Positions 8,474 to 19,211 of a stretch of 28,329 nt of DNA are shown one piece after another. Position 1 is the stretch's first letter. The number at the start of each line of letters is the position of its first letter. The stretch lies in the IMG/VR virus record IMGVR_UViG_2778261175_000004; one strand, given 5' to 3'. The stretch comes from a virus. Lineage: Duplodnaviria; Heunggongvirae; Uroviricota; Caudoviricetes. Below the pieces are notes generated by a model. The model was not told the DNA's origin and did no database searches. It saw only the letters and a list, made by a program, of their open reading frames with translations. The position numbers were made by a program, and so were the translations under genes.

Positions 8474-8589
8474 TCCTCCAATAGGCTGAGCATCCACCTA
8501 TATAGTTTTAATTTTCATCAATCCATTTAACTATCGTTTAATTGTTGTCACATAGGATTCTGCCGTTTTTAACAATGCAGGATAATAAG

Positions 8590-8883
8590 ATGAAAAAAAT
8601 GTTGTTTTCTGCCGCTCTGGCAATGCTTATTACAGGATGTGCTCAACAGACGTTTACTGTTGGAAACAAACCGACAGCAGTAACACCAAAGGAAACCATC
8701 ACCCATCATTTCTTCGTTTCGGGAATTGGACAGGAGAAAACTGTTGATGCAGCCAAAATTTGTGGCGGCGCAGAAAATGTTGTTAAAACAGAAACCCAGC
8801 AAACATTCGTAAATGGATTTCTCGGTTTTATTACTTTAGGCATTTATACTCCGCTGGAAGCGCGTGTGTATTGCTCACAATAA
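8590..8883 (+). CDS. bor: Bor lipoprotein (serum-resistance outer-membrane lipoprotein)
   Basis: From the Met at 8590: MKKMLFSAALAMLITGCAQQTFTV...LEARVYCSQ, 97 aa with lipobox LITGC; matches recalled lambda Bor / DLP12 BorD. Oriented opposite to the late genes, as in lambda. Confidence 0.9.
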   Translation: MKKMLFSAALAMLITGCAQQTFTVGNKPTAVTPKETITHHFFVSGIGQEKTVDAAKICGGAENVVKTETQQTFVNGFLGFITLGIYTPLEARVYCSQ

Positions 8884-10273: not shown

Positions 10274-11005
10274 TTACATCATGTCTTTTTCTAAAAAAAG
10301 TCTTGATGAATATTGATGGGGAGGAACACCAAAATATCTTCTGAAAACACTCACAAAATATGACGTGTTTTCATAACCGCATATCTCAGCAACTTTTCCA
10401 ACAGAATATAAATTGTAGCTTAATAACCTTTCCGCCATCACCATTCGCTCTTCAAGAATTAACTTACTAAATGATAAGCCTTCGTGCTTTAATTTTCTTT
10501 TTAACAGACTTTCACTCAGATACAGTCTTGAAGATATATCACAAAGTCTCCATGCTGCAGATATATCCGTGTGAATAATAGCCTTAACTTTACTTCCTAA
10601 ACTATTAAGACATCCAAATAAAAAACTTTGCACTATTTTCTCTGAAGATAAGATAGCAAGACATGCAAGTGATATTTGATTTCTAACAAAATCCACAGTT
10701 CTGCCATCACAATTCAAGCATGCAATCAAGTTCTTTAACAATGAAAAATCTTCACATTCCACCATCAAGTATGCCGGATAAAACCTTCTTACAGAAAAAG
10801 GTGAGAGTGTGTTGCTTTTAAAGAAATCATTAACTGTTTTCTCTTCAACATCTACGATCATTACATGATCTATATTTGATGAAAAAAAATCTTTTAAATT
10901 GTAATCAATGAGAACAGCACTTCCTTTTTTAAACAAAATATCTTCTTTACCAATTCGGACATCAAACGAGTTCAACACCAAAATGATAGAACATATGTAT
11001 GGCAT
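10274..11005 (-). CDS. AraC-family transcriptional regulator (AppY-like), AT-rich cargo gene
   Basis: C-terminal AraC helix-turn-helix region (...KVAEICGYENTSYFVSVFRRYFGVPPHQY). N-terminus MPYICSIILVLNSFDV resembles recalled AppY MDYVCSVVFICQSFDL. ATG at 11005 has an AGGTGG ribosome-binding site; the track ORF begins 3 codons upstream at a GTG. Low GC relative to flanking phage genes. Confidence 0.8.
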   Translation of the reverse strand: MPYICSIILVLNSFDVRIGKEDILFKKGSAVLIDYNLKDFFSSNIDHVMIVDVEEKTVNDFFKSNTLSPFSVRRFYPAYLMVECEDFSLLKNLIACLNCDGRTVDFVRNQISLACLAILSSEKIVQSFLFGCLNSLGSKVKAIIHTDISAAWRLCDISSRLYLSESLLKRKLKHEGLSFSKLILEERMVMAERLLSYNLYSVGKVAEICGYENTSYFVSVFRRYFGVPPHQYSSRLFLEKDMM

Positions 11006-11356
11006 ATTATCCACCTGATATCATTGGGGTTACACCAGGTAAGTATAGGTGGAAAATCAATATTCGCCAGTTCAACAATAAGGAAAATCTCATTGCATCA
11101 CAAGTATAAAATTATGTATTTAACTCACAAAGACAAATTATTAAACCAATCTGTTATATTATATATAGCTGCGTGGAATCATAATATTATATATTTTGAC
11201 TGGCATGTTTACCAACTTTAAGTTGCATCTCAATGGTTTCTTCAGCGTAAACAGAGTTTTTATACAAACTGACACTCTGGGTATCATAGTGTAGTTTTTA
11301 CGATTGTAAATATCCTGCATGCAGGAACTCATCCTTTTGGATGATATCGCATACAA

Positions 11357-12316
11357 TTAATTTACCATCAGTCTTAGAGCCAGTTCGTCCGGATAGGGAT
11401 CGAAGTAATTCTGTGTAAGCAAGTAATCATTAGGATACTCACCCAGATAATGCTTCAGCAGAGTCAACGGCGCAAGAAGAGGTAATGTGCCAGAACGATA
11501 GTTAAGTATAACCTCGCTCAACTCTTTACGCTGGCGTGTACTTAAGTAGTTACTAAAATACCCCTGTATATGCATCAGCACATTCGTGTGATTTTTACGT
11601 GATGCAGGTTTTCTGAGAATCGCCATCAGCTTATCACGATACACCTCAAAGTATGATTCAAGGTCCGCCCACTCGTGTATTGCAGCCACAAATGGTCCCA
11701 TATCTTTATAGCCTGCCTGACTATGCGCCAACAACTGAAGCTTATAACGACTATGAAAAGCTAATAACTCTCTTCTTGATAATTTCTCCTTGTAAAGGTG
11801 ATTGAGCTCATGCAAAGCAAAAACTCTTTCAACAAAATTCTCACGAAGCACTGGATCATGTAATCGCCCATCCTCTTCAACCGGTAGCCAGGAAAACTTT
11901 TCCATCAAAGTGCTCGTAAATAGTCCCACTCCATCTTTACGACCTCGATTACCATTTTCATCATAGACACGCACGCGCTCCATGCCACAGCTGGGAGATT
12001 TAGCACAAACCACAAACCCCGATACATCCTTTAATTTGTCCATATAAGAACGACTAAACTCTGTCATTCTCTCTGTCACATCCTCATTCTGGTCGTGGCT
12101 GAAACACATCCGTATATTTCCTTGCGTCGAGCGCACAAGACGTAGAGCAGGACGCGGAACTGGCAGCCCTATAGCCATTTCCGGACATACTGGTCTGAAT
12201 GTTACCCATTCCACTAATTTGTCCATTAAAAAGTCAGCTCTTTTGTGACCACCATCAAAACGAACAGCAGAGCCGGCCAAACAACCGCTGATTCCAATCA
12301 CAGGTTTTTTTATCAT
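11357..12316 (-). CDS. TudS/RudS-like thio-nucleobase desulfidase: DUF523 [4Fe-4S] domain fused to DUF1722
   Basis: 319 aa. N-terminus MIKKPVIGISGCLAGSAVRFDGGHKR with further Cys in PVCPEM and AKSPSCGM fits the recalled DUF523 (TudS) cluster-binding pattern. The C-terminal half (about 170-319) fits the DUF1722 size and position seen in RudS-type fusions. Strong GGGGGAGA ribosome-binding site. Domain assignment is from memory, not a profile search. Confidence 0.65.
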   Translation of the reverse strand: MIKKPVIGISGCLAGSAVRFDGGHKRADFLMDKLVEWVTFRPVCPEMAIGLPVPRPALRLVRSTQGNIRMCFSHDQNEDVTERMTEFSRSYMDKLKDVSGFVVCAKSPSCGMERVRVYDENGNRGRKDGVGLFTSTLMEKFSWLPVEEDGRLHDPVLRENFVERVFALHELNHLYKEKLSRRELLAFHSRYKLQLLAHSQAGYKDMGPFVAAIHEWADLESYFEVYRDKLMAILRKPASRKNHTNVLMHIQGYFSNYLSTRQRKELSEVILNYRSGTLPLLAPLTLLKHYLGEYPNDYLLTQNYFDPYPDELALRLMVN

Positions 12317-12508
12317 ATTCTCCCCCTTGACTAATTCATTAACACATAAACTGTGTAGTGCACGGAATAAATTGCCTTTCTGGCGTCATCACTGACAATT
12401 TTTCTGTTATAGACTATTCCTAATATAGTATGAAAGTTCTTTAAGTGATCGGTCGTAATCATCTATCTTTCATACTTACTCTCAACTATCAAAAGTACAG
12501 GATTTATT

Positions 12509-13033
12509 ATGAAGTTATGGCCTGTGTTGACTGGCATTGCACTCTCTTTCACTCTTATAGCATGTAAGGCCCCGACACCACCTAAAGGTGTGCAGCCGAT
12601 TACAAATTTTGACGCCAACCGCTACCTCGGAAAATGGTATGAAATAGCTCGCCTCGAGAACCGGTTCGAACGTGGTCTGGAACAGGTCAGCGCTACCTAT
12701 GGAAAACGGAACGACGGAGGGATTCGTGTACTTAACCGTGGATACGATCCAACGAAAAATAAATGGAGCGAGAGCGAAGGTAAAGCATACTTTACTGGAG
12801 ATACTAAAACTGCAGCGTTGAAGGTTTCGTTTTTTGGCCCCTTCTATGGTGGCTATAATGTAATCAAACTGGATGATGAGTATAAGTATGCTCTTGTCAG
12901 TGGTCCGAACAGAGAATACCTATGGATTCTGGCAAGGACCCCAACTATTCCAGATAAAGTAAAAGCAGACTATGTGCGAACCGCTCAAAAGTTGGGATTC
13001 AATGTCAATGAATTATTATGGGTTAAACAATAA
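12509..13033 (+). CDS. Bacterial lipocalin Blc-type outer-membrane lipoprotein (divergent homolog)
   Basis: 174 aa with lipobox FTLIAC. Blocks NFDANRYLGKWYEIARLENRFERGLE, SEGKAYFTG, AALKVSFFGPFYGGYNVI and YLWILARTPTI closely parallel recalled E. coli Blc, but with many substitutions (roughly 60-65 percent identity by eye). Confidence 0.85.
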   Translation: MKLWPVLTGIALSFTLIACKAPTPPKGVQPITNFDANRYLGKWYEIARLENRFERGLEQVSATYGKRNDGGIRVLNRGYDPTKNKWSESEGKAYFTGDTKTAALKVSFFGPFYGGYNVIKLDDEYKYALVSGPNREYLWILARTPTIPDKVKADYVRTAQKLGFNVNELLWVKQ

Positions 13034-13061
13034 AATCCCTACCCGAAATAATACTTATTAG

Positions 13062-13088
13062 AAAAAAACCAGCCTTTGGGGAGGCTGG
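13062..13088 (-). terminator. Putative late-leader terminator (tR'-like), also placed to terminate the convergent blc-like transcript
   Basis: Stem CCAGCCT / AGGCTGG (13069-13075 / 13082-13088) with loop TTGGGG; on the minus strand it is followed by a T7 run (forward A7 at 13062-13068). Lies about 100-125 nt downstream of the Q stop, as expected for the lambda-type 6S leader transcript. Confidence 0.5.
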
Positions 13089-13188
13089 CTAAATCAGGAA
13101 ACAAGCTGTTATATGATAATAACTACGTTGCGATTCCAACATTTAAAATGTTAGACTAATGAGAATCAGACAGCAACTTTTCCTTTAA

Positions 13189-13566
13189 TTATTTCGAACA
13201 ATCAGCATCCATCTCCAATCGGAGATCCAACACCATCAGCATACCCTCCACTACGCCCTCAGCTTTCTGGAGCATCCTGCCAACCCAACAATCAGATCGC
13301 CCATGCTTACGTGCAAGCGCCATAAAAGTCATGCCGCCGACATAATAGTCCACCAATAAATCATGCAAATCGCTGTTGTTCTTTTTCAGACGGGCCATGC
13401 ACCCGCAAATGATCATCGCGTCATCGTCACAACATTGCGGGCGAGATTTTACTTTTGAAGGAATTAATCCCTTAAAACCGGCGGCAATGGACGACCAGGT
13501 CACATCTTCATGATTATTAGCCGCCCACGCTCCCCAACGCTCAAGAACCATCTGAATATCACGCAT
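13189..13566 (-). CDS. Q: Late-gene antiterminator Q (QuuD-like)
   Basis: From the Met at 13566: [60 protein letters not shown]...; Cys-rich Zn motif; matches recalled DLP12 QuuD over most of its length. Confidence 0.8.
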
Positions 13567-13648
13567 CAACTTACTCCACAAAACTCAGACCAGAACGCCA
13601 ATTACAAGCAAAAATCAACAAAACAGTATTAGTTGATTGTTATCTCTG

Positions 13649-13789
13649 ACTTCATACTCCTGCTCCTGTCAGTGTTTTGGCGTAATTCTTCAGTATTCGG
13701 TAATCGGTCAAAACAGAGCCGGGGAAACGATATAAGCGCAGACGCCCCCAGCGGTGGCGAAGAAGTTCTGCCATATTAAACTCAAACAT
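13649..13789 (-). CDS. ylcG: Small nin-region protein YlcG-like (46 aa)
   Basis: Manual translation of the minus strand: MFEFNMAELLRHRWGRLRLYRFPGSVLTDYRILKNYAKTLTGAGV; ATG overlaps the rusA stop (TGATG). Below the ORF-track size cut-off. Confidence 0.5.
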
Positions 13790-14152
13790 CATTCATTCCC
13801 CATTTCGGTGATGGTCAGTTCCAGCCTCCCACCTTTGGTAACAGGCATCTTCACAACGCGGTAATCAACGACCTGAGCATCATCCAGCCAGAAACCTGCT
13901 TTAGTGAGTGCGTCAAAAGCGGCTTTTTGCAGATTATCCAGGTCACGGCTACGGCGATCCGGCATGTGGCACTCAATGCGGATTTTCACAGGCATAGCCA
14001 GGCCGATATCCAGCATTGCGTTTTTAATGATTCGGGCGACGTTATCGCGGTATGCCTGCCCCCTCTGCACTGACGTGCGTGCGCCCGCGATTATGGCGGT
14101 AATAGCGATTATTGCTCGGAGGCCAGGGTAATGTGATACTGTAGGTATTCAC
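13789..14152 (-). pseudogene. rusA: Holliday-junction resolvase rusA, disrupted by a +1 frameshift in a G5 run (C5 on the forward strand, 14059-14063)
   Basis: Minus-strand GTG at 14152 gives [31 protein letters not shown], the recalled RusA N-terminus, then hits a stop after the G5 run. The remaining RusA sequence ([19 protein letters not shown]...TITEMGNE) continues in the +1 frame as track ORF 13789..14070. Confidence 0.75.
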
Positions 14153-14439
14153 GCCTTAATAACCCCCTCTTTCAGCCAGATAACCTGTGTTCTCGCCATA
14201 CCTTCCAGCGCGCATTCTTTTGCATATGCAGCATCGACAAAATGTGTGCGGCGGTCGATTTCGTCGTGGCAGGCAGAACATGCAATGGTGGCAATCAGGT
14301 CTGGCGGTTTGATACCGGTACCGCACAATCCAGCCAGCCGGATATGTGCCAGTACAGACGTTTCAGAATTGCCATTACATACGCCAGGGATTCTTACCTG
14401 GCATTCCCGACCACGCGCTGCTTTTCTCAAATCAGCCAT
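14149..14439 (-). CDS. ybcO: YbcO-like nin-region protein (putative nuclease, DUF1364)
   Basis: From the internal Met: [42 protein letters not shown]...EGVIKA, 96 aa; matches recalled DLP12 YbcO. Four Cys suggest a metal site. Confidence 0.8.
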
Positions 14440-14602
14440 GATTCCTCCTTGCTGCCAGTCGCAACCATTTTTTATCAACCAGGCTAGCGGTATATCCGAG
14501 CAGTGTTGGTATTTCGGATGGCTTCAGCTCAGGCTTACGCTTACGACGATTTGATACTCTGTAGATGTGTCCGTTCATGACACGAATAAGCGGTGTAGCC
14601 AT
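14432..14602 (-). CDS. ninE: NinE-like protein (56 aa)
   Basis: Manual translation: [56 protein letters not shown]; start overlaps the ybcN stop (TAATG), end overlaps the ybcO start. Below the track size cut-off. Confidence 0.65.
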   Translation of the reverse strand: MATPLIRVMNGHIYRVSNRRKRKPELKPSEIPTLLGYTASLVDKKWLRLAARRNHG

Positions 14603-15057
14603 TACGCCTCCTGCTTGTCGCGGAGCAGCTGGAACTCGCAGCTCTGCGGAATAGTCAGGTGGCAGCCAATATTCACCGCCCAGGCTTCAACCTTACACAG
14701 GAAGACATACATCTCTCCGGTATCAAGATCGGAGGTATGGCGTAACGACTGGATAGTGGTGATATCACCGGTTACGACATCAACCAGGTCTTTGGTTTCA
14801 TAACCGAGATATGTGTGTTTGAGAGCATCTTTTACCCAAGCTGGAGTGGCGAACGTTTTACCCCTGCTGATGAGGTATTCACTGATTTCGCTGTACCACA
14901 TGTGGCTGAGTGCATTCTGGGAAAGACTGCGTTTCTCACGCCACGGTTTAAGCACCATGCGAAAGCATTTGCCCTCCTCCAGATAAGGCTGGATCTGCCG
15001 ACCGATAGCGGTGAAGTTGCCGCGATGTAATTTGATGCCGTCTTGTGAGAGGTTCAC
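14602..15057 (-). CDS. ybcN: YbcN-like nin-region protein (DNA base-flipping protein family)
   Basis: 151 aa, [55 protein letters not shown]...; matches recalled DLP12 YbcN; start codon is GTG. Confidence 0.8.
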
Positions 15058-15155
15058 GCTTCACCTCCGCAGAGGTCAAACGCTAGATGCAAAGAATTGC
15101 AGGTGCATTTCTGCATCTGTGAAGGGAGAAGAGAGTTTGGATTGTATGTGCGCAT
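15054..15155 (-). CDS. ylcH: Small protein YlcH-like (33 aa)
   Basis: Manual translation: [33 protein letters not shown]; stop overlaps the ybcN GTG (GTGA). Identity to K-12 YlcH is assumed from position and length only. Confidence 0.3.
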
Positions 15156-15271
15156 AAACGTCCCCGTTTAGCGCAGAAGTCACCGGAGTTGTTCAGGCTC
15201 CGGTGACATAATTATGCCGTGTTGATTTCCCAAAATCAAAATCGATAGAATTGCTCCTTCTTAAAACACTT

Positions 15272-16069
15272 TTACTCTCTGGAAGCTTTTCTTATCTCTC
15301 TTGGTGTTATATTAAAACGATTATGAAATCTTTCAGTAAAACGAGAAGGACACTTATAACCATTTTCTCTGGCAATCTCGCTTATAGGTTTTACCGTCGT
15401 TTGTATAGCAGACAACGCATTATTTAACCTCACATCGTCCAGTATACTTTGGAAACTTACCCCCTCGCTTGCTAGACGGCGATGTAATGTAGAAACAGAA
15501 ATGTAGAGATATCGAGCAACCTTGTTTGCTGTCCATTTTGTGCCGGGTTCGGATAGCAGCAGGTTATAACAACGACTTATCAATGATTGTTTACTATATG
15601 ATAAAAGTAAATGATTAACATGATTCACTCCTAACGAAAGTAGAACGCCCATTGCTAAGTGCTCCTGAATTTTAGTTGAGAAGCCTCGGGAAACAGATGT
15701 TTTTAGTTGCTCCCAACAATATATTAACTCAGGATTCTGAGGTAAAAAGAAACTTGTTTTGTTACGTATTTGATCAGTTACCGTATAAAGTTTTTGGAAA
15801 CTCTCAATTAAATCAATGGGTAAGTAAAGCATTTCTGCAAGATAAAGCCCTGCTTCAGGATAATTCTCAATATAAAATTCATAACCACAAGGAAATAATA
15901 TTATTTGATTATTATCAACAGTTAAAGTATGCGTCTCCCAATTGATAACTTTCTTTCCCTGACGGATACGACACAAAGCTGGCATAAGAGGCTTAACCCT
16001 ATGAATCTCATGATGTTTATGCATCCGTATTTCTTCGATCTTTAAGTTAGTCTTACCTCTTGCCAGCAT
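15272..16069 (-). CDS. ybcM: AraC-family transcriptional regulator YbcM-like
   Basis: 265 aa; C-terminal AraC helix-turn-helix (...[42 protein letters not shown]...). Matches DLP12 YbcM in position and length. Confidence 0.8.
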
Positions 16070-16078
16070 ACTCTCACC

Positions 16079-16630
16079 CTACTTTATCTCATAAACTGGT
16101 GTTATCTCAGCGGTTGCGATTTTATTAGCATTAAGCATATAACCAACTAACGCTCCGCTGGAGTTAGAATCTACAGGAATCTTTTCAGTTTTTAGAGCCC
16201 ATACTTTAAACTGGTAATGATGTGGTTTATCTCCTTTAGGAGGACACGCGCCACCAAACCCAGCATAGCCAAAATCATTTCGGCCTTGAACAGCACCAGT
16301 CGGCAGTTTTGTTCCATCACGTCTCCCTGCATCAACGGGCAAATATGTTATTGTTGCTGGAATATTAACAACAGTCCAATGCCACCAACCACTGCCTGTA
16401 GGTGCATCTGGATCATATACAGTTACGGCAAAGCTTTTGGTACCTTCAGGAACACCAGACCAGGTTAATGAGGGCGATGTATTACCACCTTCACACCCAA
16501 ATCCAGAAAAGACATGAGACGTTGTAAGTTGCTCTCCTGTTTTTATTTCATTACTAGTGACCTGAAATGCTGCAGCCTGCGCAGAAAATGTTATGAATGC
16601 CAATACAGTTGAAACGATAAGTGTTTTCAT
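16079..16630 (-). CDS. ybcL: Periplasmic phosphatidylethanolamine-binding protein (PEBP / Raf kinase inhibitor-like) YbcL-like
   Basis: 183 aa with signal peptide MKTLIVSTVLAFITFSAQA; PEBP motifs (...YDPDAPTGSGWWHW...HHYQFKVWAL...). Confidence 0.85.
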   Translation of the reverse strand: MKTLIVSTVLAFITFSAQAAAFQVTSNEIKTGEQLTTSHVFSGFGCEGGNTSPSLTWSGVPEGTKSFAVTVYDPDAPTGSGWWHWTVVNIPATITYLPVDAGRRDGTKLPTGAVQGRNDFGYAGFGGACPPKGDKPHHYQFKVWALKTEKIPVDSNSSGALVGYMLNANKIATAEITPVYEIK

Positions 16631-16846
16631 AAAAACCTCTTTGTTATGACCTATCGTTATTTTATTTGATATTCCTTTATCTCATTATGCATAAAGGCGC
16701 AATTTTTATGCAAAAGCAATCACAATTGTACCCCCAACCCAATTATTTGCCACAATATACACAAAGCACATTGATACTATCTAAAAACTCTGCTTTATTA
16801 TTAGTAATACCTACGAAAGTCGGTGTTATTTTTTAACCTATCATTC

Positions 16847-16896
16847 AAAATACGTGACATACACCATTTTGCTCATAATAATTTGTCACGTATTTT
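16847..16896. repeat. Perfect 13-bp inverted repeat AAAATACGTGACA / TGTCACGTATTTT with a 24-bp spacer, in the ybcK-ybcL intergenic region
   Basis: Direct reading: 16847-16859 and 16884-16896 are exact reverse complements. Confidence 0.9.
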
Positions 16897-17094
16897 CAGT
16901 ATTTGAATCTGCGACCAAGAGTTCTCACCTGACAAATGATTAAGATTGTATAGCTCATTTACTACCCCAATACAGCCGTACAAAACTCGCTTGTGGGAGC
17001 AAACAAAGTAATTACCCATTAAGTTTCGTCAAAGATAATTAATTCTGTCTTGCACTTTATCACCATAGCATAACTTAAAATCCGAGATCATTAT

Positions 17095-18621
17095 TTAGAA
17101 ATAAATCTCACCATCAACCATATATTTGAGAGCACTTATCGCCTGCTGGGCGGATATTACTTTCATTAAAGGATAGTGTTTAAAAACAATGCCATTCATA
17201 AAATAAATATCACAGGTTTTATTATCCGTATTAATTATGATTTTTTCGAATGTTTTATAGGCAAGTGTACGGCATAACTCTCGTCCATTTTTACTGGTTA
17301 AGTCAATAGCATAAAAATCACTGAATGAATTTACACCTTTACTCTTCAAAGTTTTCAATGATACCGAAGCCCTTCGTAATTCCTTATCTAATAGTCTTAT
17401 TTTCTCTGCTATAGCGGTAACTTCAGGCGCGACAGACAATGCAACGATTAAATTATTAATTTTCATCTGAAGCTCAATAATTTTTAACTCTAAAGTTTCA
17501 TTAGCATCTTTCTTGTTTTCAACTGGTTGAATTTTGCTACAATTAAAAAGCAATTCATTAATGATATTATAATCAACCAAATCTCTTTTTATTGATGGCC
17601 TGTCACATCGATGTAATCTTCTCATCGGACAAACATAATAGCCATGCAAACTTCCAGATACCGCATGAACAATCATGGTATTACCACAAGCCTCACACTT
17701 CATAACTGTTCGAAGTAGATTTATTAGCATAGGATTCTTGCTACTATTGCTAATACCAAAAGGTGCCAACCGAATTTCCTGTACAGCGTAAAACAAATCA
17801 TCTGATATGACTCTGGGATAATAGCCAGCGATTTCACTTATCCCTTTCCCTCTTGCACGATATGAAGGTACGCATATACCTATCAGAGCTTTATTCGCTA
17901 ATAATTTTTCAATTACAGAAGGTCCCCATGCACTTTCTTTTCCTGAGAAATTCTTTACAGCATGATCATTTAAATACTTGGCTATTGCATTCAATGAGCG
18001 CCTTTCCATCCTGAGTTTAAAAATTAGCTCAATAGTTTTCACCCTGTCGGGGTCTGGAACAAAAGCCGTTCTTTTGTCATCTAAGGAGAGCCATCTCGGA
18101 CAAGACGCCGTCATAATCGTACCTGATTCCAGTGCATCCTGCCGTTTTTTCTTCCATGATAATTTAACCCGACTTGACTTTATCTCGCTTTCTTCATTTG
18201 CCCTTTGTGCTATAAGTATGGCTTTTATTAATGAATATGGCTCATTCAAAGAGTCAATATTATAGACTGTATTGTCGCAAAGAGTTATAACATCAATACC
18301 GTGATTCAAAATCAATTTCAGACGTTCAATCGCTTCACCGACTTTTTCTCTTGAAAGTCTGTCCAGACTTTCAACTAACAATGTAGTTCCTGGCAATATA
18401 TAACCATGCTCTATAGCATCTAAAAATTCCGAAAAAGCTCCTGATTGTGCATGCTTTCCTTTGAATGCACTTAATCCTAAATCTTCATATGTTATGGTAT
18501 CAAGATAATAATCACTATTTACCTTTAACCATTCAGCAATAAGTCTTCTCTGTCGGTTTAATGAGTCACCAGACATCTGACCTGGTGATGAAAATCGCAT
18601 ATATGCTATGGCTTTTTTCAT
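17095..18621 (-). CDS. ybcK: Large serine recombinase (resolvase/invertase-type N-terminal catalytic domain plus large C-terminal domain), YbcK-like
   Basis: 508 aa. N-terminus MKKAIAYMRFSSPGQMSGDSLNRQRR... has the serine-recombinase catalytic motif (Y-x-R-x-S-S). C-terminal Cys cluster (CEACGNTMIVH...YYVCPMRRLHRC) is typical of large serine recombinases. Confidence 0.85.
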   Translation of the reverse strand: MKKAIAYMRFSSPGQMSGDSLNRQRRLIAEWLKVNSDYYLDTITYEDLGLSAFKGKHAQSGAFSEFLDAIEHGYILPGTTLLVESLDRLSREKVGEAIERLKLILNHGIDVITLCDNTVYNIDSLNEPYSLIKAILIAQRANEESEIKSSRVKLSWKKKRQDALESGTIMTASCPRWLSLDDKRTAFVPDPDRVKTIELIFKLRMERRSLNAIAKYLNDHAVKNFSGKESAWGPSVIEKLLANKALIGICVPSYRARGKGISEIAGYYPRVISDDLFYAVQEIRLAPFGISNSSKNPMLINLLRTVMKCEACGNTMIVHAVSGSLHGYYVCPMRRLHRCDRPSIKRDLVDYNIINELLFNCSKIQPVENKKDANETLELKIIELQMKINNLIVALSVAPEVTAIAEKIRLLDKELRRASVSLKTLKSKGVNSFSDFYAIDLTSKNGRELCRTLAYKTFEKIIINTDNKTCDIYFMNGIVFKHYPLMKVISAQQAISALKYMVDGEIYF

Positions 18622-18800
18622 GGTGACACCTGCTAACGTATGCTTTTATAAACCTTAGTGGTGGGATATAATTTTTGTTTAATTTTTATTTAAAAAGACA
18701 ATTAAGGTCACATTATCTTGAATATACAACAATAATCGTATTGCAATTTTCTTACGCCATAATCTTGAAAGCACAAAAGAATACATAAAAAATAAAGACA

Positions 18801-18845
18801 TTAACAAAAAGCATAAAACGAGGCTCATATAAATATAAGAGCCTC
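18801..18845 (-). terminator. Putative terminator downstream of emrE
   Basis: Stem GAGGCTC / GAGCCTC (18820-18826 / 18839-18845) with a 12-nt AT loop, followed on the minus strand by GTTTTATGCTTTTTG. The long loop makes this only moderately convincing. Confidence 0.35.
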
Positions 18846-18875
18846 CATATTTTAGTCGTTTAGAAACAAATTATT

Positions 18876-19211
18876 TTAATGTGGTGTGCTTCGTGACAAT
18901 AAATTAATAACCAACACACCGGCACAAATCAACATCATGCCTATAATAGCTGGCAGGTCCAGCCGTTGGTCGAAAAGTCCCCATGACAGTAAGCTAATCA
19001 GGACAATACCGACTCCTGACCAGATAGCATAAGCAATCCCTGTAGGAATATAAGCCAGCGTCTGAGCTAATAACCAGAATGATGCACAATAACAAATAAT
19101 TGTACCAACAGATGGCCATAACCGTGTAAAACCTTCTGAAAACTTCATTAAGGTTGTACCAATGACCTCTGCAAGTATTGCACCACCAAGATAAATATAA
19201 GGGTTCATAGC
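18876..19211 (-). CDS. emrE: Small multidrug resistance efflux transporter EmrE
   Basis: From the internal Met: MNPYIYLGGAILAEVIGTTLMKFSEGFTRLWPSVGTIICYCASFWLLAQTLAYIPTGIAYAIWSGVGIVLISLLSWG..., 110 aa; matches recalled E. coli EmrE. Confidence 0.95.
   Translation of the reverse strand, partial: AMNPYIYLGGAILAEVIGTTLMKFSEGFTRLWPSVGTIICYCASFWLLAQTLAYIPTGIAYAIWSGVGIVLISLLSWGLFDQRLDLPAIIGMMLICAGVLVINLLSRSTPH

Follow-up and report, generated by a model that had tools for sequence, protein, structure and literature searches.

An inherited one-base frameshift in the rusA gene of a lambda-like prophage located beside espL1 in Escherichia coli

The closest described counterpart of the locus reported here is rusA of the E. 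coli K-12 prophage DLP12 (WP_001099712.1; structures PDB 1Q8R and 2H8C/2H8E), which is the same gene, lies in the same gene order (ybcN-ninE-ybcO-rusA-ylcG-Q) and has the same start and stop overlaps with its neighbours. The K-12 gene is intact and transcriptionally quiescent; insertions of IS2 or IS10 activate it, and ruv mutations are thereby suppressed (PMC1636454). Mutagenesis and structural studies of the protein have implicated R69 in DNA binding and D70, D72, K76 and D90/D91 in catalysis, and in the crystal complex a flexible loop formed by residues 15-28 contacts the DNA (PMC1636454). Isolated lambdoid coliphages (among them PhiR34_1, ev017, 2G7b and mEp332) carry rusA in the same position upstream of ylcG and Q, with 98.4-99.2% nucleotide identity to the copy described below. 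Lambda carries a non-essential junction-cutting nuclease, Rap (NinG), in its nin region between the replication genes and Q. Rap is analogous in role and map position; it belongs to an unrelated protein family, and the comparison extends only to how the two proteins work.

We have analysed a stretch of viral DNA of 28,329 nt (IMG/VR record IMGVR_UViG_2778261175_000004), referred to throughout as the window, and observed that it consists of a near-complete lambda-like prophage. Its genes run in the order int; exo/bet/gam; kil-like, cI-like (S24) and cro-like; O, P and ren; emrE, ylcJ, ybcK, ybcL and ybcM; ybcN, ninE, ybcO, the frameshifted rusA, ylcG and Q; lipocalin, ybgA and an HTH gene; essD, rrrD and rzpD; iss; and, in the last part, nohD, terminase, portal, protease and the D and E head genes. 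The window differs from K-12 DLP12 in that its rusA copy is frameshifted, the prophage is near complete, the integrase is a different one and the insertion site lies beside espL1/yniD, not argU. In the 38-kb region of a near-identical strain, GPEC403-625, no gene other than rusA carries a pseudogene flag. The features of the window around rusA are as follows.

14149-14439, minus strand: ybcO (DUF1364); its stop overlaps the rusA start (GTGA)
13789-14152, minus strand: rusA pseudogene of the RusA-family Holliday-junction resolvase, 364 nt with a +1 insertion, as against 363 nt in intact alleles
14059-14063, minus strand: frameshift site, five G on the coding strand (five C on the plus strand), four G in intact alleles
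14042-14152, minus strand: remnant translated from the GTG start, 31 RusA codons followed by five out-of-frame codons (AGIPR) and TAA
13789-14070, minus strand: out-of-frame C-terminal part of rusA, 89 RusA codons within a 93-aa open reading frame that starts MQRG
13652-13792, minus strand: ylcG; its ATG overlaps the normal rusA stop (ATGA)
13189-13566, minus strand: Q-family late antiterminator, the next gene downstream

Since the next gene downstream encodes a Q-family antiterminator, rusA occupies the canonical lambdoid nin/Q position. The GTGA overlap between ybcO and rusA is typical of translational coupling in a nin-region operon. The premature stop described below, some 250 nt upstream of ylcG, should abolish any coupling of ylcG to rusA translation. 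The ybcO coordinates given are those of the 96-aa RefSeq protein, which overlaps ninE; the mechanically called reading frame at this place extends from 14149 to 14478, with a TTG start and 109 aa.

Other segments of the prophage carry accessory genes, as listed next.

15272-19208: accessory block between ren and the nin genes (emrE, ylcJ, ybcK, ybcL, ybcM)
about 18876-19208: emrE, an SMR efflux pump
17095-18621: ybcK, serine-recombinase family
10274-13033: cargo ('moron') block between Q and the lysis cassette
12509-13033, plus strand: lipocalin-family gene of the cargo block, on the strand opposite to its neighbours
11357-12316, minus strand: YbgA-family gene of the cargo block
10274-11014, minus strand: HTH-domain gene of the cargo block
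about 8589-8882, plus strand: iss (increased serum survival, a bor-like lipoprotein), on the opposite strand between the lysis genes and the terminase small-subunit gene

The block from emrE to ybcM is the same as in K-12 DLP12, but the prophage around it is here otherwise complete and differs in integrase and attachment site; GPEC403-625 has an insertion of an IS3-family element at emrE. The cargo block lies where other lambdoid phages carry stx or porin genes.

An earlier note on this DNA, made from the letters of the window, had claimed that rusA is split by a one-base frameshift in a homopolymer, with five C at 14059-14063 where the intact reading needs four. Both points are borne out by the sequence. 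The plus strand reads gcctgCCCCCtctgc, with CCCCC at exactly these positions, and the list of open reading frames and their translations showed two minus-strand frames, from 14152 to 14042 and from 14070 to 13789, that differ in phase. Removal of one G fuses the two into a single reading frame of 363 nt with a product of 120 aa. In intact alleles the run has four G and is read as GAG GGG CAG (E30, G31, Q32), whereas in the window the frame translated from the start codon ends at a TAA at 14042-14044, after 36 codons. The C-terminal frame reads MQRG and then QAYRDNV...TITEMGNE. The earlier note had divided the gene into 30 N-terminal and 93 C-terminal codons in different frames; the difference in frame stands, but the genuine RusA codons number 31 and 89.

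The identity of the gene is clear from several comparisons. The repaired 120-aa product matches the crystallised E. coli RusA (PDB 1Q8R) at 119 of 120 residues and, the inserted G aside, the window gene differs from rusA of MG1655 by 3 nucleotides and one residue (R68S); by the MG1655 DNA and the 1Q8R protein, the N-terminus that the earlier note had used for RusA was the correct one. The repaired product scored 80.1 bits against the Pfam RusA model (PF05866; cut-off 22.8), and the 93-aa C-terminal frame 63.3 bits, with model positions 1-24 missing; the 36-aa N-terminal peptide gave no Pfam match. Both pieces are 100% identical to RusA, so that the match is not one of chance. We observed that R69, D70, D72, K76 and D90/D91 are all encoded downstream of the shift, outside the frame that is translated from the start codon, and that the 36-residue peptide comprises the first N-terminal strand and the flexible 15-28 loop, with none of the DNA-binding or catalytic residues. 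The gene thus matches the family profile and encodes the critical residues, but the stop after 36 codons interrupts the frame of about 120 codons that a functional member would have; since no complete frame is left, we have filed it as a RusA-family pseudogene. From the truncation we infer that the copy has lost its activity.

To follow the allele through sequenced genomes we used as a probe an 81-bp segment centred on the G run, which matches 2457 complete E. coli records. The five-G form was found at 100% identity in 58 of these records, among which several near-duplicate isolates (such as Z142-2/-4/-7 and WR3-3/WR14-2) bring the independent observations below 58; all other matches sampled spanned 80 bp, that is, they have four G. 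The carriers had been isolated on several continents, from human, dog and chicken hosts as well as from rivers, lakes and sewage, and were sequenced in different laboratories and on different platforms (for example, PacBio for 28Eco12 and an ONT and Illumina hybrid for EcPF15). A JGI metagenome contig that is 99.83% identical to window positions 10895-15692 (4.8 kb) also has five G, as do three IMG/VR contigs; the latter we have not taken as evidence from virions, since their names look like those of prophage predictions in isolate genomes. An exact-pattern scan of the GTDB species-representative genomes did not find the five-G allele. In every carrier examined, PGAP/RefSeq marks rusA as a pseudogene, 'frameshifted', and in this sense the pseudogene is ordinary in kind and already known. 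The junction of int with espL1 was found in 73 genomes; the best 60 of these 73 junction matches include at least 51 of the 58 carriers. Also, rusA of this type was present as a single copy in 39 of the first 40 carriers, so that redundancy of the gene is not general.

All 58 carriers have the five-G run on one haplotype, that with R68S. Comparison with rusA in related prophages, which the earlier note had suggested as a check, yielded intact alleles on this same haplotype: those of AR_0013 and 23CRST032 are nucleotide-identical to the window allele over all 363 positions except for one fewer G. Their frame is open, and they encode WP_001099715.1, in which R68S is already present. The AR_0013 allele lies at the DLP12/argU locus, beside tRNA-Arg/fimZ, and the 23CRST032 allele at the espL1 site; in the loci that encode this protein the lipocalin and YbgA cargo is found downstream of Q, as in the window. 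A synthetic five-G probe built on the K-12 haplotype had no exact match among about 2400 E. coli records, and a corresponding three-G probe matched one genome, ET474 (NZ_CP100954.1, 3045421-3045499), on the K-12 haplotype; on these two results we dropped the idea of a mutational hotspot or switch. The ET474 allele itself could be a -1 frameshift that arose independently, or else an error in assembling the homopolymer. Judged from the alleles compared, then, the five-G form is a derived +1 insertion of single origin, for which replication slippage in the run of four G is the most plausible mechanism.

One group of related genomes has probably lost the frameshift again. In strain A1_136 the espL1 site is occupied by this prophage too (99.7% identity over 22.9 kb), and yet its rusA is intact and divergent (WP_001099655.1; 21 nucleotides and 8 amino acids different). 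We made a three-way comparison in which FFFEB2 (5.205-5.230 Mb) was the reference for a second lambdoid prophage, and observed that from the window-equivalent position 14486 to 10863 A1_136 agrees with the second prophage at 53 consecutive informative sites. Upstream of this tract (14522 and above) A1_136 agrees with the window at 25 of 25 informative sites, and downstream of it (10352 and below) at all but one of about 50. This pattern indicates that A1_136 carries a recombination tract of 3.6-4.2 kb from the second prophage. With the tract the frameshift in rusA is gone, and a 1-bp deletion has come in that puts the HTH gene (equivalent to window 10274-11014) out of frame. By coordinates, the same tract allele is located at the espL1 site in WP5-S18-ESBL-07, WP3-W18-ESBL-08, 15.TR.026_OXA, KTa008, Nord1 and E30, and the tract was found in at least 7 related genomes; FFFEB2 and OU701452 each carry both the five-G gene and an intact gene of the donor type. 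The five-G allele occurs on at least 4 flank haplotypes and the tract on only one. Because of these counts, and because the window haplotype matches that of AR_0013 and 23CRST032, we favour the direction in which five G is ancestral and the tract derived. On this view the related genomes, some of them ST38, illustrate how a pseudogene in one prophage can be overwritten in nature when a second resident prophage recombines with it.

Taken jointly, these observations are very probably explained by a single insertion of G into the G4 run, giving a loss-of-function rusA, that took place in one event on the R68S haplotype and was inherited with the prophage at the espL1 site. In the history we propose, one extra G would have entered the run spanning rusA codons 30-32, most plausibly by replication slippage, in a lambda-like temperate phage. 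Translation from the normal GTG would then leave the frame after Gly31 and stop five codons later. The mutation would have occurred once, on the haplotype whose intact protein is WP_001099715.1, and would afterwards have been passed on together with the espL1-adjacent prophage in ST38, ST394 and further E. coli backgrounds, the prophage most likely spreading by lysogeny after the mutation.

Other explanations of the split frame have been weighed against this history. We consider it very improbable that the ribosome reads through the shift by leaky or programmed +1 frameshifting, in which the Gly-tRNA on GGG would re-pair one base downstream (GGG-G), CAG would be read next and wild-type RusA would be made at a low level. 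The five-G run does allow perfect re-pairing of a tRNA that reads GGG, and a +1 slip anywhere in the 6 codons ahead of the TAA would bring back a native or near-native protein. Moreover, the run forms a Shine-Dalgarno-like motif, AGGGGG, that is reminiscent of the prfB cassette. However, this motif overlaps the shift site instead of lying about 3 nt upstream of it, and in the zero frame the A-site is occupied by GCA, a codon that is not rare and not a stop, so that the combination of slippery codon, stop or hungry A-site and spaced stimulator that marks a site of the prfB type is lacking, even though GGG-G permits re-pairing. An Rfam scan of the whole window gave no RNA family at the gathering threshold, and hence no annotated frameshift-stimulating element. 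Nor is a recoding site conserved across homologues: the gene is in frame in 2399 of the 2457 E. coli records (those without five G, as sampled) and in all 47 phage records with rusA, all 58 shifted records fall on one haplotype, and in related genomes the allele has been replaced by an in-frame copy. A basal slip on GGG-G that gave native RusA would be inefficient. A weaker form of the idea, that spontaneous +1 slippage yields a trickle of authentic RusA and that the phage which spread through several E. coli lineages carries a strongly down-tuned rather than a null resolvase, has in our judgement a similarly slight chance of being right; if true, a down-tuned RusA could be favoured should full expression be costly to the lysogen.

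There is equally little to recommend the proposal that translation starts internally, at the GTG at 14070, to give a truncated RusA (residues 32-120 after MQRG) with some activity. The 93-aa frame holds all the catalytic residues, and its Pfam score has been given above. Yet it entered the list of open reading frames because of an incidental GTG: the codon at 14070 arises from a synonymous AGC to AGT change, K-12 has no GTG at the same position, and we could recognise no Shine-Dalgarno motif upstream of it. Also, the fragment would lack the first strand and the flexible loop of residues 15-28, in agreement with the missing positions 1-24 of the Pfam model.

A still poorer case can be made for the run of four or five G as a reversible contingency switch that phase-varies the resolvase of the prophage. 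In its favour are the location of a homopolymer inside a coding sequence and the one independent three-G allele. Against it, high rates of slippage need a longer run than 4-5 bases, and contingency loci are marked by long tracts whose lengths are intermixed among close relatives, which is not the pattern seen here: five G on the major haplotype was found in none of about 2400 records, one haplotype is common to all 58 carriers, and at the espL1 site the frameshift was lost through a multi-kilobase tract (at least 3.6 kb), not by a 1-bp reversion.

As little credence can be given to the suggestion, raised as one of two possibilities in the earlier note, that the fifth G is a homopolymer sequencing or assembly error and that the true sequence has four G and an intact rusA: such indels are a common artefact of long-read assemblies, and the singleton three-G allele of ET474 could be one, but the same five G recurs in 58 complete genomes from different laboratories and platforms, in one metagenome contig and in three IMG/VR contigs, its confinement to one haplotype and one prophage is a pattern of inheritance and not of random error, and the four G of about 2400 assemblies with the same local context exclude an artefact driven by that context. 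The five-G rusA is an ordinary inherited pseudogene rather than a sequencing mistake, and of the two possibilities it is the genuine pseudogenisation that the genomes support, with slippage of strands as its probable cause.

We then considered how the mutant prophage came to be present in its various hosts. Sequence types were taken from the literature for 6 of the 58 carriers: 28Eco12, 266917_2, NMBU_W05E18, Z0117EC0051 and Z0117EC0056 are ST38 by published typing, and EcPF15 is ST394. Over 11.5 kb the prophage of strain 2452 shows 2 mismatches, and in A1_136 the 13.8 kb of prophage that lie upstream of the recombination tract show 3 differences. Yet the chromosomal flank, in a comparison that begins about 240 bp outside the prophage end, differs from that of GPEC403-625 by 1% in A1_136 and by 2.7% in strain 2452. 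On account of this disparity we revised the view that the five-G allele is a simple clonal marker of ST38. Near-identical prophages within flanks that are 1-2.7% apart point to probable horizontal spread after the mutation, the simplest reading being that a phage already carrying the frameshift entered several lineages by lysogeny at one and the same attB. Homologous recombination that replaced the chromosomal flanks could, however, mimic horizontal spread, and the spread of an infectious mutant phage finds no counterpart in the phage collection, where rusA is a 363-bp in-frame gene in 47 of 47 records, unlike the window copy, and five G was found in none. Spread by lysogeny after the mutation would imply that RusA is dispensable for the phage life cycle; the nin region of lambda is known to be dispensable.

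For biology at large, a 1-bp insertion in a non-essential accessory gene of a temperate phage carries little weight, and both the spread of a mutant prophage and the overwriting of one prophage by another are expected behaviour of lambdoid prophages. The five-G rusA does provide a clean marker for one particular lambdoid prophage at the espL1 site that circulates in ST38, a lineage of global distribution, and in relatives of ST38. In carriers, the classical back-up by which ruv defects are suppressed, through activation of prophage rusA, would be unavailable from the five-G copy.

Two carriers show further changes in or around the prophage. In strain 2452 (NZ_CP031833.1, 2144575-2160055) the prophage is heavily decayed but has kept an identical five-G rusA. 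A deletion has taken out its early region from beyond int as far as ren, its lysozyme gene has been cut short, and tail-fibre fragments occupy the place of the head genes; the adjoining espL1 carries a frameshift of its own. In KKa019 (NZ_CP091664.1) the five-G rusA is located at 3.466 Mb and the int-espL1 junction at 2.320 Mb, about 1.15 Mb apart. Such a distance points to a major rearrangement of the chromosome, perhaps by inversion between two lambdoid prophages resident there.
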